Shown: positions 3,178 through 18,476 of the stretch, piece after piece
Numbering within the stretch: the first letter of the stretch is position 1
Layout: the number at the start of each line of letters is the position of its first letter
From: a virus
Taxonomy: Duplodnaviria; Caudoviricetes
Virus record (IMG/VR): IMGVR_UViG_3300034388_000009
Span: 1-31,483 of that record
Strand: one strand, 5' to 3'
DNA: 31,483 nucleotides
Notes under the pieces: model-generated
Told to the model about the DNA's origin: nothing
What the model saw: only the letters and a program-made list of their open reading frames with translations
Databases searched by the model: none
Made by a program: the position numbers and the translations under genes

Positions 3178-3440
3178 AGCCGATCCTAGACTTCATCAAG
3201 CCCCGCATCGGTCGCCTGTTCAACAGCAAGGACCACACGCTTGAGGTCCACCTCGCAGCGTTCGGCTGCGGGATCCTGGCGTTCATCACGTGGCTCACGA
3301 TCTGGGTCCTGCGTGGGCCTCGCGACGCCAACCTCGTGGCAGCGCTCGTCGTGTTCGCAGGTGCCATCACTGGTGGTCTGTTCAAGAAGGGAAGCGCGAA
3401 TGGCGAAGCGCCAAAGGATGGAGAGGGAGGTGCCCCATGA
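3174..3440 (+). CDS. Putative class II holin
   Basis: 88 aa with two hydrophobic segments (LAAFGCGILAFITWLTIWVL; LVAALVVFAGAITGGLF) and a charged C-terminal tail; ATGA overlap with the endolysin. Confidence 0.7.
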   Translation: MKPILDFIKPRIGRLFNSKDHTLEVHLAAFGCGILAFITWLTIWVLRGPRDANLVAALVVFAGAITGGLFKKGSANGEAPKDGEGGAP

Positions 3441-4057
3441 TGTGGACCGGAAGGCACGCAGTCGCAGCGTTGGGCGCGACGCTGATCTTCGTGGCAGGTC
3501 TCGGTCTGGGCTGGGTGCTCTGGGGGGAGAAGCCGAAGGTGGTGGAGACCTACGCACCTGCGTCGACCCAGGAGGACGGGAGCAGGATCCTGGAGCGGAA
3601 GCCGCAGGCCGACGCGGTGCCTGCTCACGAGGTGCCGAAGGGGGGCGTGGTGGAGCGCGTGGTCCAGGTGACCATTCAGCCCACTCCACACGTCGAGGTG
3701 ATCAACCGAACCAGTGGCTCAGACCTCGTGGTCGCACCTGGGACGGTGGTGCCGTGCCCTCCGGTACGTGTGGACCTGAGCCTCGTACGGATGCCGGACC
3801 AGACCCGCAGGGTGGTGGCTTCGAGCCCTGATGGGCGAGTGGTCGCAGGTGTGGACATCCCCGTCGAGTCTGCGCCAGCGCCTGCGGTCCCGCTGCGGTG
3901 GGCGGCTGGCGGCCTGTACAACCCGACCGACCGTACGTACGGCGCGTTCATCGACCGCGACCTGGGTCCTCTGCGTGTAGGAGCGGAGCTGTTCCAGGTC
4001 CGCACGTTCGACCGCGTGACATGGTCCGGCCAGCTGAGGCTGGGCATCAGGTTCTGA
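3437..4057 (+). CDS. Membrane-anchored lysis protein, spanin candidate
   Basis: GGGAGG RBS and ATGA overlap with the holin stop; N-terminal TM segment AVAALGATLIFVAGLGLGWVLW, Pro/Val-rich middle, amphipathic beta-strands ending LRLGIRF; last gene of the lysis block. Confidence 0.65.
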   Translation: MMWTGRHAVAALGATLIFVAGLGLGWVLWGEKPKVVETYAPASTQEDGSRILERKPQADAVPAHEVPKGGVVERVVQVTIQPTPHVEVINRTSGSDLVVAPGTVVPCPPVRVDLSLVRMPDQTRRVVASSPDGRVVAGVDIPVESAPAPAVPLRWAAGGLYNPTDRTYGAFIDRDLGPLRVGAELFQVRTFDRVTWSGQLRLGIRF

Positions 4058-4065
4058 GCACAACG

Positions 4066-4092
4066 AAAAAGGCCCCCAGTACGGGGGCCTTC
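4066..4092 (-). terminator. Intrinsic terminator between convergent blocks (U-tract on - strand, possibly bidirectional)
   Basis: AAAAAGGCCCCC-agtac-GGGGGCCTT: 9-bp stem 4069-4077/4083-4091, with an A5 run on + giving a U-tract on -. Confidence 0.8.
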
Positions 4093-4100
4093 GCTTGCCG

Positions 4101-4122
4101 GGTCAACGCTGGTCGTTAGGCG
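4101..4122 (+). repeat. 22-bp direct repeat copy 1, the right half (L'-R') of an attC site
   Basis: GGTCAACGCTGGTCGTTAGGCG is identical to 4443-4464 and contains the GTTRRRY core GTTAGGC at 4115-4121. Confidence 0.85.
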
Positions 4123-4382
4123 TCAGTCCTGCTATCCCATACGACTGTGGAATCAGCCCAGTAGCCACTTACTTCCTGGTCGTCCCGGCTGAAGCTGAAA
4201 AGCGCCACAACCTTGTCGGTCCGGTGCTTCCGTAGCTGCACATAGTTTGTTTCGCCCTGGCACCTGTAAAAGTGCGCCTCCGCAGACACCCCATAATTTT
4301 CATGGCTTCCGATTCTGCGAACGTCCACGCTTGCGGGAAACCCGCTGCCTGCTCTGATGTAGTCGAAGTTACTGATTTCCAT
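4116..4382 (-). CDS. Cassette-borne hypothetical protein (88 aa, MEISNFDYIRAG...)
   Basis: GGAGG RBS 4 nt before ATG 4382; many A/T-ending codons unlike its neighbours; the TAA stop lies inside the attC core site (GCCTAAC on -). Confidence 0.75.
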   Translation of the reverse strand: MEISNFDYIRAGSGFPASVDVRRIGSHENYGVSAEAHFYRCQGETNYVQLRKHRTDKVVALFSFSRDDQEVSGYWADSTVVWDSRTDA

Positions 4383-4457
4383 GTGTCCTCCGTTTTGTTT
4401 GTGTCCCCGCCTAACCATGCGTTCCAACGGACCCTTCGGGCCGGTCAACGCTGGTCG
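4116..4457 (+). mobile_element. Integron-type gene cassette (G^TTAGGC to G^TTAGGC, 342 bp) carrying one inverted ORF
   Basis: Bounded by two GTTAGGC core sites and ends in a complete attC; 4141-4380 is about 55% GC by hand count versus roughly 65% in flanking genes. Confidence 0.7.
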
Positions 4458-4463
4458 TTAGGC
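4409..4463 (+). other. attC-like recombination site (55 bp)
   Basis: R'' GCCTAAC - 5 nt - L'' GTTCCAAC - GGACCCTTCGGGCC - L' GGTCAAC - 7 nt - R' GTTAGGC; R''/R' are perfectly complementary, with unpaired C and A at the usual extrahelical positions; L-box pairing is imperfect. Confidence 0.75.
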
Positions 4464-4465
4464 GC

Positions 4466-4774
4466 TCATCGTTTCACTACCTTGTCGAAGACCCAGGCGT
4501 AGCCTGCGAGGTCGACCACGCTGTCGTGGTGGGCAGGGTCCTGCCGCAGTCGAGCCAGCTTCATCGCGATCGCGAAGAGCACAGCCTCCTCGGGTTCGAT
4601 CTTCTTGCCGAGCAGCGCGCTCGCGATCTCGGCGGTGTTGATCCAGTTCGTGGCGGGGTCGCCGTACTGCTTGGCTCTCGTGCCGTTCACCAGCGCGTTC
4701 GCTTCGAGCAGGATGTTCGAGGATGTCTCGACCTCGGCGTCGATGGTGCCAGGGGTCACTTCTGGAAAGCTCAT
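4466..4774 (-). CDS. DUF6378-family protein
   Basis: Motifs ILLEANALVNGTRAKQYGDP...MKLARL...HHDSVVDLAGYA; AAGGAG RBS. Confidence 0.8.
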   Translation of the reverse strand: MSFPEVTPGTIDAEVETSSNILLEANALVNGTRAKQYGDPATNWINTAEIASALLGKKIEPEEAVLFAIAMKLARLRQDPAHHDSVVDLAGYAWVFDKVVKR

Positions 4775-4794
4775 GTGGTTCTCCTTGTGGAATG

Positions 4795-4829
4795 AAACAG
4801 CGGGGTGGTCCGAAGAGCCCCGCTGTTTT
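4795..4829. terminator. Hairpin, terminator-like in both directions
   Basis: AAACAGCGGGG-N12-CCCCGCTGTTT(T), an 11-bp stem in the intergenic gap. Confidence 0.55.
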
Positions 4830-4859
4830 CAGTCCGCACATACGCGGACGGTCAGGGTA

Positions 4860-5060
4860 TCAGTTCTTGAAGATGGAGTGGACGAAGTTGTCGTTGAAGA
4901 GTCGACGCTGCTCGCGGGAGAGGAACGCAGCGTAGTCCTCGGTCTCGCCGAGCTTGAGGGCCTTGTGGTAGACCTTCTCGGGCGTGCTGCTGGGCCCACC
5001 GTCGCAGAGCTTGAGCAGCTTGCGCATGACGGTGTCCCTCATCTTGTCGTTGTCGTTCAC
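4860..5060 (-). CDS. Hypothetical protein (66 aa)
   Basis: GTGA overlap with the helicase stop, GGAGAGG upstream, GC3-rich codons. Confidence 0.65.
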   Translation of the reverse strand: MNDNDKMRDTVMRKLLKLCDGGPSSTPEKVYHKALKLGETEDYAAFLSREQRRLFNDNFVHSIFKN

Positions 5061-6538
5061 TTGCCTCTCCTTTCACGCGCCATGCGCACGATGCCGTCGA
5101 ACAGTGCTTGCTCAACGGAGCCCTTGGATCCCATCACACCGTACAGCACCTCGTCGATGGTGTCCTCGGCGAGCAGGTGATGGATGAACACTTGCTTGAA
5201 CTTGCTTCCTTGCCGCCAAACACGGTCGATGAACTGGTCGTAGAGTTCACGGTTCCAGGTCATCGAGTGCCAGCACACGTTCTGCGCGCTCTCCTGCAGG
5301 TTGAGTCCGTGCCCGATGGAGGCCGGGTGGCCGAACAGGAGAGGGATCTCGCCACGGTTCCAGCGGCGCTCGATCTGGTCGAGCTGCTTCATGTTGTAGT
5401 CGCAGGCGAACACGCCGTCCTTGAACGCAGCTCGGAGACGGTCGAGGTCGTGGCCGAAGTCGTAGGCCACAAGCAGCGGGTCTCCCTGCAGTTCGTCTAC
5501 AAGGTCGCGCAGAGCGGTGATCTTCTCGCTGTGCAGGTTGACGTGGTCCTTGTTCTTCCCCGGCTTGAAGAGGCCGTTGGGCAGCATCTCCGGGTCGAGG
5601 TAGATCCCGCCGTTCGCGACCTGCCGGAGCTTCGTGGACTTCGCCGCAGCGTTCGCGGCCGACACCACGCGGTCGTCAACGGCGGAGAGGAAGAACTTCT
5701 CCATCTGGTTGTAGACCTCGCGCACGTCAGGAGGGAGCTGGACGAAGATGTTGTTCTCGATCTTCTCCGGCATGTCCAGGTGCTCGTAGCCCATCGACAG
5801 CATCAGCGGTTCGATGCGCTCGTAGATCCGTTCCTCGGCCCCAGGCTGCAGGTCCCAGTCGAAGCCGTTGCGGTGAGGGTAGAAGAACTCGTCGCGGAAC
5901 TTGGTGATGTACCGGCCGAGAGCGTTGCCCTGGTCGAGGATGTAGCACTGCCCGAACAGGTCCATCAGGCCGTTCGCTGACGGCGAGCCAGTGAGGCCCC
6001 ACCGACGGCCGAGAGTGTGGTGCACCTGCTTGAGGGCCTTGAAGCGGTCGGTGTTGTGGTGCTTCCACTTCGACAGCTCGTCGAGCACCATCGCGTCGAA
6101 GCCGTGAGACTTCCACCGCTTCATGTCGACAGCGATGGACTTCTTCTTGTTGCCCATCACGGTCTTCGACACGCCGAGCAGCCAGTCGATGCCTTCGGGG
6201 TTCATCAGTACGATGTCCACGTCGGCCTTGAGCGCGGCCTCCTTGTCGGGCCCATGCGCGATCGCGTAGGTGAGGTGGTTGAAGTCCGCCCACTTCTGGA
6301 TCTCGCGCGGCCACACGAGGTAGCACGGCCGCAGCGGCGCGATGATGAGCACCTTGCCCAGCACCTTCCGCTTCTTGAGCAGGCTGATCGCGGCCAGGGT
6401 TGACGAGGTCTTGCCGAGCCCAGGCTTCAGCAGCAGGCCTGCGCAGGCGTGCTCAAGGAGAAACTTTATGGCGACCTTTTGGTACTTGCGCGGCGTGTAG
6501 GGCCGCGCGGACTGCCGATACGGCTGAGTCGTGGTCAT
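5057..6538 (-). CDS. SNF2-family (SF2) DNA helicase/ATPase
   Basis: PRKYQ Q-motif, PGLGKT Walker A, VLDELS Walker B, GLTGSP motif III, HPASIGHGLNLQ motif V, QFIDRVWRQG motif VI. Confidence 0.93.
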   Translation of the reverse strand: MTTTQPYRQSARPYTPRKYQKVAIKFLLEHACAGLLLKPGLGKTSSTLAAISLLKKRKVLGKVLIIAPLRPCYLVWPREIQKWADFNHLTYAIAHGPDKEAALKADVDIVLMNPEGIDWLLGVSKTVMGNKKKSIAVDMKRWKSHGFDAMVLDELSKWKHHNTDRFKALKQVHHTLGRRWGLTGSPSANGLMDLFGQCYILDQGNALGRYITKFRDEFFYPHRNGFDWDLQPGAEERIYERIEPLMLSMGYEHLDMPEKIENNIFVQLPPDVREVYNQMEKFFLSAVDDRVVSAANAAAKSTKLRQVANGGIYLDPEMLPNGLFKPGKNKDHVNLHSEKITALRDLVDELQGDPLLVAYDFGHDLDRLRAAFKDGVFACDYNMKQLDQIERRWNRGEIPLLFGHPASIGHGLNLQESAQNVCWHSMTWNRELYDQFIDRVWRQGSKFKQVFIHHLLAEDTIDEVLYGVMGSKGSVEQALFDGIVRMARERRGK

Positions 6539-11239: not shown

Positions 11240-12214
11240 TTACACCGTCACGAGTTCGAGCAGGGTGGAGAGGGCCTGGGTCTTCTGCTTCGCGCCGTTG
11301 CCGAACACGATGGAGTTGGTCCGGTCGTCGGTGCCCTTGACCTGGGACATCCAGTCCGTCCACTCGGTGAAGGCCTGCAGCATGCCGTAGGCGTTGCCGG
11401 TGCGGCCGGGGATCTCGGTGCCCTTGCCGTTGACCATGAGGTACTCGAACTGGTCGAGCTTGTTGAGCAGCACGGTCTTGCCACGGCCTTCCTCGCGCTC
11501 GTCGATGCTGCCGAACATGCGGCGCTCGAACTCGGTGACGAGGTCGTTCGTGAGCTTCTTCTTGGCCAGGAACTGCAGGGCCTCGACGAAGGACTTCTGG
11601 TGCTCCGCGTGGGCCGCGACGATCTTGGCCGCGATCGCGAGCTTGTCCTTCTGGCTGTTGGTGTGGCGGATGCGCACCACACTGGTGGCCTTCTCGCTCT
11701 CGGCGATGTTGAGCGTGTTGTTGCAGACCACGGTGATGCTGGTGCCACGGTACTCGGTCACGCTCTGACCGTCGAAGCCGGTGGTGAACAGGTGGCGGAT
11801 CTCGATCGGGTCGCCCTTGACGATCTCGATCGTGCGGTCGGTCTTCGGCGCGGCCAGGATCCAGATCTTCCCGGTGCTGAGCATGCCAGCGGTGCGGTAC
11901 TGCATCTGGTCCGACTTGATGAGGCTGTCGGTGAAGTCGAACGCCTCCTGCGGCTGCAGGGGCTCGTAGCGGTCGCCGACGATGCCGAAGACCTGCTTGG
12001 TGTCGCTGCTGACGTTGGCGTACGAGCCGTCGATCTTGGTGCCGTCGGCGAGGAAGATCGGCATCTTCTCGACCGTGAAGTCGAGCTTGGCGGCGCGGAT
12101 CATCTCGGCGGAGGTCTGAGCGGTGCGGACGTTGGTGCCCAGCTGGTGCCAGGGGTTGACGTCGGCGTGTGCGAACCGGGCTTCGCCGTTGCGGAAGGAA
12201 AGGTTGTGGGCCAT
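11240..12214 (-). CDS. DUF932/DUF945-family phage/plasmid protein
   Basis: MAHNL...PWHQLG...AKLDFTVEK...VGDRYEPLQPQEAFDF...ITVVCNNTL...IRHT...AFTEWTD motifs; AAGGAG RBS. Confidence 0.9.
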   Translation of the reverse strand: MAHNLSFRNGEARFAHADVNPWHQLGTNVRTAQTSAEMIRAAKLDFTVEKMPIFLADGTKIDGSYANVSSDTKQVFGIVGDRYEPLQPQEAFDFTDSLIKSDQMQYRTAGMLSTGKIWILAAPKTDRTIEIVKGDPIEIRHLFTTGFDGQSVTEYRGTSITVVCNNTLNIAESEKATSVVRIRHTNSQKDKLAIAAKIVAAHAEHQKSFVEALQFLAKKKLTNDLVTEFERRMFGSIDEREEGRGKTVLLNKLDQFEYLMVNGKGTEIPGRTGNAYGMLQAFTEWTDWMSQVKGTDDRTNSIVFGNGAKQKTQALSTLLELVTV

Positions 12215-18118: not shown

Positions 18119-18476
18119 TTGCCTCACCCCCCTGAAAATGGGTGGGTGAGGCAAGGGGTGAGGCAAGGGGTGAGGCAAGCCTCAAACGCAGTGGTGGCGC
18201 GGGCTCGCAGAGATTTTGCCTCACTGCCTCACCCAGATCGCCAAAAATCTTTTCCCCTACACACCCCCTCTTTCATTACATATTAAAAATAATCTTTTTT
18301 TCTCTTAAAGAATAAGAAAAGGGTGAGTCAGGTGAGGCAAAATCCTCGGCGGGCCGCACCAGTACTGCGTTTACGTTTGCCTCACCCACTCTTCCCAGGT
18401 GAGGCATGGGTTGAGGCAAAATTCGCTAGGACGTAGTGGTGTAGCGGGTTTGCGCCATGTTTGTTGGGTGAGGCAA
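18119..18476. repeat. Iteron cluster (12 copies of (GG)TGAGGCA(A), both orientations) around an AT-rich core; putative replication origin
   Basis: Copies start near 18119(-), 18145, 18157, 18169, 18216(-), 18225(-), 18321 (variant TGAGTCA), 18331, 18377(-), 18398, 18410, 18467; AT-rich core about 18243-18320. Confidence 0.8.

Follow-up and report, generated by a model that had tools for sequence, protein, structure and literature searches.

In an integron, a cassette is a gene that reads toward its own attC site, so that it can be expressed from Pc. The integron recombinase, IntI, is linked to the SOS response (PMC9892861) and acts on the folded bottom strand of attC, in the normal polarity of which genes are oriented away from Pc (Nivina et al. 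2016, PMC5027507, in its accessible part). Phage attC sites without an integrase are already known: both attC sites and CALINs, clusters of attC sites lacking an integrase, have been published from phages, and those of virulent phages serve as substrates of IntI1 (Qi et al. 2023, PMC9892861). The accessible text of a further study reports that IntI1 also inserts cassettes at short GWT sites in genomes and treats attC decay as a route to domestication (10.1101/2022.09.11.507474), and the available portions of two others report that integron cassettes often encode anti-phage systems (10.1101/2024.07.02.601719, 10.1101/2024.07.02.601686). A rule that phage cassettes are reversed was not found in print. 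The text of Qi et al., figures aside, mentions divergent sites and multiple ORFs and does not give reversed ORFs as a rule; the accessible parts of PMC13323075, 10.1101/030866 and PMC13676570 contain no such phage rule; and no description of it was found in the literature searched, which covered few subscription papers.

Here, we describe a computational analysis of a 342-bp unit in a phage contig, which an earlier note made from the sequence alone had taken for an attC gene cassette. We present evidence that the locus is a real but minimal member of a class of phage cassettes, one that has a single unusual feature and gives no direct evidence of being active. The whole stretch of DNA that was analysed, hereafter the window, is a linear viral contig of 31.5 kb with a CheckV completeness of 71%, so that 29% of the genome lies outside it. 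Its gene products include a GP7 major capsid protein, Bbp16- and Bbp19-like proteins, a head-tail connector and tubular tail proteins, together with a terminase, a family A polymerase, a primase and an SNF2 helicase, and another contig, of 35.4 kb, carries these proteins as well. From the Bbp labels in Pfam, we take the phage to be a BPP-1-like podophage. The cassette lies where rightward late genes, ending at 4057, converge with a leftward gene block that extends from 4116 to ~18 kb. The last gene of the rightward late operon (3437..4057, + strand) encodes a protein of 206 aa without a family match, spanin-like by position only, and the leftward operon ends at an intrinsic-terminator-like hairpin (4068..4092, - strand), which is supported by its position and not by rarity, because one such hairpin was found compared with 1.3 in shuffled sequences. 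Upstream of the cassette within the leftward operon lies a DUF6378 gene (4466..4774, - strand) with a native-like GC3 of 0.83, and no sigma-70-like promoter was found in 3900-5200.

The complete attC site occupies 4409..4463 on the + (top) strand, with its presumed crossover, G|TT, between 4457 and 4458. Read in the sequence, R'' (4409-4415) is followed by a 5-nt spacer, L'' (4421-4428), a hairpin (4432-4440), L' (4443-4449), a 7-nt spacer and R' (4457-4463), and the extrahelical bases C4424, within L'', and A4431 lie in one arm and give the site its strand polarity. The full attC architecture that the earlier note had described is borne out by covariance model R1, with which the site scored 48.8 bits (E 1e-10) on the + strand versus 9.9 bits on the - strand, a score that is somewhat favoured, since the pattern that supplied 7 of the 20 training sites had itself been modelled on this one. 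The second-best R1 match within the window reached 13.4 bits, and the folding z at the site was -4.3 on the + strand and -2.8 on the - strand. R1 is a home-built model of 20 bacterial attC sites (one of 21 was dropped as misaligned), with the phage site excluded. Its training sites were drawn by a pattern scan of GTDB genomes from 9 loci, three of which are clear arrays, one of them adjoining a gene that scores 474 bits on TIGR02249; the model also recovered 6 attC sites outside the training set in these loci.

Two features of the site had been called non-canonical. The 7-nt L'-R' spacer does not deserve the term, as it occurs in arrays adjoining intI and in 15 of the 214 viral sites surveyed below. 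The two L-box mismatches are real, in that L'' departs at two positions from the usual partner box of L', and at least two such mismatches are found in 31 of the 214 viral sites as well; L' itself is of a natural type, its usual partner box being present in attC2 of phage TJE1 and in two viral sites. The predicted pairing probability of the R box is 0.43, compared with medians of 0.87 in viral and 0.85 in control sites, and the site therefore looks weakened; from the two L-box mismatches and a competing fold, low present activity is predicted. The nearest attC sequences lie in bacterial arrays (L054, L048), and patterns built on the exact 19-nt right arm, on the 7-nt spacer and on the specific L' each returned 0 matches in IMG/VR.

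From crossover to crossover the cassette unit spans 4116..4457 (+ strand, 342 bp). Its GC content of 0.558, compared with 0.633 for the window, agrees with the figure of about 55% given earlier for the 342 bp between the two GTTAGGC cores, and the complementarity between its R'' and its own 5' core is complete, a property shared by 98 of the 134 adjacent viral pairs. The unit carries a single 88-aa ORF (4116..4382, - strand, start at 4382) that is antisense to the polarity of attC, with its stop codon TAA inside the left R' core and a Shine-Dalgarno GGAGG (4387..4391, - strand) within the 26-nt leader between R'' and the ATG. The earlier description of a promoterless, inverted ORF with its own RBS and its stop in the neighbouring core, placed at the end of the phage early transcript, therefore stands; the ORF is the last of the leftward operon, immediately before the terminator. 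Its coding score is positive, and its GC3 is 0.65, compared with 0.75-0.96 in 42 of the 44 genes called besides it; the two exceptions, lower in GC3, are short, weak calls near 18.3 kb. The GC3 of the ORF points to a recent arrival. Assigning attC to the minus strand, by which the ORF would become canonical, was rejected on the R1 scores (9.9 versus 48.8 bits).

The 88-aa protein has 69 relatives at E values up to 0.001, and a 2.5-kb ENA contig encodes a protein, P0002, that is 93% identical to it. It was modelled by AlphaFold with a pLDDT of 95 as a small, mainly beta-strand protein, for which one structural match was obtained in BFVD (TM 0.79) and none in the PDB (Foldseek best E 2.2; VIA best Z 3.1), a result that neither proves nor excludes a new fold. 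The protein did not match Pfam, NCBIfam or PHROG, and 50 aligned members of the family did not match Pfam or PHROG. Several long proteins with 4-9 repeats (P0055, P0061, P0064, P0066, P0069) weakly match its C-terminal third. Nine homologous loci were examined: five metagenome contigs, whose rows of small, packed genes are read as phage-like, three IMG/VR contigs that encode the same protein as one of these five, and Bacillus phage vB_BhaS-171, in which the homologue sits after two small HTH genes in the early region. R1 found no attC site in any of the nine, the family was not found in plasmids, and its profile detected no member in the viral attC arrays fetched. Since the homologues are all from phages or phage-like DNA and lack attC, the gene is of phage type rather than one known from bacterial cassettes, and the family is not otherwise known as cassette cargo. 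The suggestion that this ORF links phage and bacterial integron gene pools is accordingly not supported.

The orientation of the ORF was compared with that in other phage attC sites. A general attC pattern was applied to 18 of the 64 parts of IMG/VR and returned 127 stretches, 80 of them with flanks, and R1 gave 253 matches, reduced to 214 in 74 loci after removal of repeat views and duplicate contigs; genes were assigned with a simple caller that reproduced the genes of the window and the bacterial arrays. Among the 214 viral sites, the gene on the R'' side was reversed in 181 and canonical in 4 (24 were uncalled and 5 lay at an edge), whereas among 27 control sites, 26 bacterial and one from TJE1, 23 were canonical, 1 was reversed and 3 were uncalled, a comparison limited by a small control set (8 loci), by relatedness among some of the viral loci and by a pattern that picks one GC-rich type of site. 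Counted by locus, 67 of the 74 viral loci were reversed, 2 canonical and 5 undecided, and a stricter gene score left 132 reversed versus 3 canonical viral sites and 0 reversed versus 17 canonical controls. A reversed ORF is the rule for the sampled phage attC sites, and the inversion that the earlier note had singled out as an anomaly is the norm in phages.

The locus also matches the detailed geometry of these reverse-polarity cassettes, with an antisense ORF that starts ~20-30 nt outside R'' and with stops in or near the neighbouring core. The start codon lies 20-30 nt outside R'' in 87 of the 181 reversed sites, and 27 nt outside it here. The stop codon falls inside the R' core in 75 of 131 stops, as it does for the 88-aa ORF, and the second commonest position, +8 to +11, accounts for another 30; the stop of the DUF6378 gene lies at +9, that is, 9 nt beyond the G of R'. 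In nine pairs of viral loci the same cassette has different neighbours, and the switch occurs at G|TT or no more than a few bases from it. Of 174 cargo proteins, 100 were scanned, and 36 of these match PHROGs, 15 of the 36 being DNA methyltransferases or Mom-like. Phage sequences therefore contain many sites with the opposite layout to that of integrons (~430 IMG/VR stretches are estimated overall, from one restrictive pattern), and their cargo is of phage type.

With the phage CALINs of Qi et al. the locus shares attC hairpins without intI, a host IntI as the likely enzyme and a position adjacent to a terminator, as in phage TJE1; it differs in having one complete attC and a half-site (≤3.7 bits), which is below the two-site definition of a CALIN. 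One of the published clusters, MW202573 (2069-3738), is itself reversed, with 5 R1 matches on the - strand and annotated genes on the + strand, and the single TJE1 site found by R1 is canonical. PH101, P12002L and Shewanella phage 3/49 gave no R1 match in a fast search that also missed TJE1. The plus-strand genes of the reversed cluster in MW202573 come after an excisionase.

Canonical integron cassettes resemble the unit in their R''-L''-L'-R' hairpin, extrahelical bases in one arm, G|TT crossover, promoterless ORF and an R'' complementary to the cassette's own 5' core. Here, in contrast, the ORF is on the bottom strand and does not end near its own R'', two L-box mismatches are present, intI, Pc and a recognisable attI were not found, and the cargo belongs to a phage family. 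Insertion at attG sites likewise produces a lone cassette outside an integron, at GTT and expressed from a resident promoter (10.1101/2022.09.11.507474, accessible text), and is insufficient by itself, because attG needs only GWT and here 15 more bases match the attC arm. A third comparison is with cassettes of the truncated-attI type, described in the available part of PMC12901181, which are likewise bounded by a short, non-hairpin site still usable by IntI1; in the present locus the source of the short site is an attC arm rather than attI, and the site stands at the head of the array.

This short site is the feature particular to this locus: its head is a copied attC arm. The half-site (4101..4122, + strand) comprises L', the spacer, the R' core and one more base, and has its presumed crossover between 4115 and 4116, the array-head position in which other phage arrays often carry an attI-like site. 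The repetition of the right 22 bp of attC that had been noticed earlier is exact, at a distance of 342 bp from 4443-4464, and none of the other repeated 15-mers listed for the window extends to a longer exact repeat. As the right arm only, the half-site scored ≤3.7 bits with R1; a perfect L'' partner for it at ~4006-4013, within the late gene, was rejected for want of an R'' (3.7 bits). Of the 55 viral arrays whose flanks are long enough, 35 have a first gene that terminates at a core matching the cassette's R'', and in 13 of these 35 heads an attI-like box precedes the core by 5-6 nt. Such boxes coincide with the stop codon of the last gene (L078, L126, L067, L097, L069, L129, L096 and others). 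A copy of the array's own right arm was found in 0 of the 35 other heads, a few of which are probably undetected attC sites, and none came within 5 mismatches. Seven of the 22 repeated bases, plus the last, belong to the common core, which is shared by 19 of the 214 viral sites. The identity of the 15 bases to the left of the crossover requires common descent, and identical 15-nt right arms were found in 6 of 355 within-array pairs of viral sites. Most simply, the head arose from a second attC with the same right arm, in a duplicated or sibling cassette, followed by a deletion up to the terminator.

We consider it fairly probable that the 342-bp unit is a single reverse-polarity, integron-type phage cassette that a host integron integrase, supplied in trans, likely placed at G|TT and that has by now probably decayed in part. 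IntI would recombine the folded minus (bottom) strand of attC. Expression of the cassette gene would come from the early transcript of the phage itself, ending at the 4068-4092 terminator, because the array head stands at the far end of the leftward operon. Moved into a host integron, the same cassette would point away from Pc and go unexpressed, and an ordinary host cassette landing here would be antisense and equally silent. Several points count against this reading: the contigs of four runs hold no sign of movement at the locus, no close relative carries other cargo, the head is unlike the 35 other heads, and a recombinase could sit in the missing 29% of the genome.

The enzyme was sought in the window and in related records. 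No intI adjoins the cassette, which is flanked by genes of the late and helicase operons within the 31.5 kb of a 71% complete genome; the earlier remark that an integrase is lacking extends to tyrosine recombinases generally, as no PF00589 domain was found in these 31.5 kb (71% of the genome). Of 15 viral records that bear arrays, including 4 with a completeness of at least 90%, none had a TIGR02249 match above the cut-off, and two had a weakly matching tyrosine recombinase near the array. These latter frames, of 334-349 aa and 28-31 bits on TIGR02249, lie near reversed arrays (L124, L129) and could be phage integrases or divergent cassette recombinases. Host IntI acting in trans is the most plausible candidate.

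Evidence of movement was sought in sequencing runs that contain the locus, all 2020 sediment metagenomes that may represent one campaign. Contigs of runs X1 and X2, which may be the source of the window, span both junctions without difference; the left junction is spanned also in X3 and X4, and the right also in X4. All four runs carry the same cargo wherever it is covered, and their contigs, an assembly product that drops rare variants, contain neither an empty-site joint nor other cargo. Runs X5 and X6 yielded short pieces only, among which one 154-nt contig from X5, at a depth of 2.2, matches 45 of 50 nt of attC and then runs on into another neighbour, which hints weakly at sibling sites. 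No relative could be aligned across the junction among 34 helicase loci (35-65% identity) and 11 loci of the late gene (206 aa), R1 detected no attC in these 45 loci or in 5 whole records, and BLASTN against GenBank phages and plasmids returned short DUF6378 matches or chance matches only. Of the proposal that the locus is an accessory-gene slot loaded and excised by a host integrase, the enzyme remains the most plausible one, and the exchange itself finds no counterpart, in the form of a swap or an empty site, in the contigs of the four runs.

These results bear on a more active version of events, which we regard as unlikely, in which an attC arm has been remade into a functional, double-stranded landing site, the half-site, and cassettes enter and leave the phage population through it, either by host IntI or by recombination between the 22-bp repeats, both of which would yield the same 342-bp deletion. 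The half-site does occupy the position of the attI-like heads of other arrays, the predicted empty site would leave the DUF6378 stop at the typical offset of +9, and IntI1 accepts short GWT sites (10.1101/2022.09.11.507474, accessible text) and truncated attI (PMC12901181, available part). The neighbour change in the X5 contig would fit as well, but it is one 154-nt record at a depth of 2.2. Against such a slot, the four runs contain no empty-site joint and uniform cargo wherever covered, the L-to-R spacing is 7 nt rather than the 5-6 nt of attI-like heads, and an incoming cassette would not be expected to match its target at the 15 bases to the left of the crossover. A related idea, that the locus records the birth of a cassette at a docking site made by the phage, with a free-standing phage early gene (of a family found elsewhere without attC) enclosed by a duplicated attC arm on one side and a full attC on the other and the half-site serving as the landing pad for host IntI, seems to us doubtful.

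The origin of the truncated left site is addressed directly by a passive history, in our judgement improbable, in which a segment consisting of a right arm, a gene and the next attC was captured from the reversed array of another phage by illegitimate or single-strand-annealing recombination, no integrase ever having acted here. Mosaic relatives are close at hand, with loose ends and variant alleles of the helicase at 5074-5263, a PD-(D/E)XK exonuclease is among the phage's own gene products, and illegitimate recombination has also been invoked for phage attC clusters by Qi et al. (PMC9892861). Capture would require, however, adjacent sites with identical right arms, as rare as the 6 of 355 pairs above, and a right breakpoint that happened to leave DUF6378, of native GC3, with its stop at a cassette-typical offset. 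It is very unlikely that the unit is an ordinary host cassette inverted out of a bacterial array, or the work of a phage recombinase in the missing part of the genome, because, despite the closest attC sequences being bacterial (L054, L048), the window genome being 71% complete and two array-bearing records having a tyrosine recombinase of 334-349 aa near the array, only 1 of 27 control sites is reversed, the ORF family is found in phage or phage-like DNA and not in plasmids, and four array-bearing phages at least 90% complete lack a TIGR02249 match.

Returning to a reverse-polarity cassette inserted in trans, if host IntI moves such cassettes, phages would be borrowing an SOS-linked host recombinase to shuffle their own accessory genes, and reversed polarity would then separate the phage cassette pool from that of the host. 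With this polarity, cassettes of a pool private to phages would go unexpressed in host integrons, as would anti-phage cassettes of the host in the phage, and silencing of this kind would matter because integron cassettes, in the available portions of the two reports cited above, often encode anti-phage systems. A phage gene that exists both free and bound in a cassette provides a testable case for the origin of cassettes. The present locus is a minimal and probably decayed example, and larger arrays are better suited to the study of mechanism.

Several minor observations concern the surroundings of the cassette. A second terminator-like hairpin at 4795-4828, between a 66-aa ORF and DUF6378, has a loop that exceeds the limit of the terminator scan and could lower or separate the expression of DUF6378 and the cassette gene. 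At 5074-5263 and 3975-4004, runs X1, X2 and X4 contain another allele of the helicase, together with loose ends and a break between contigs, variants of a mosaic phage population that flank the cassette region on both sides. In two relatives, a tRNA-like sequence, recognised by eye, follows the homologue of the last late gene (L038:4615-4760, L039:1508-1650). Within the leftward block, 11240-12214 encodes a DUF932 / TIGR03299 phage-plasmid-like protein. Finally, 41-nt inverted arms, 107 nt apart, at 18184-18372, in the low-GC gap between the divergent gene blocks, mark a candidate control, origin or genome-end region.
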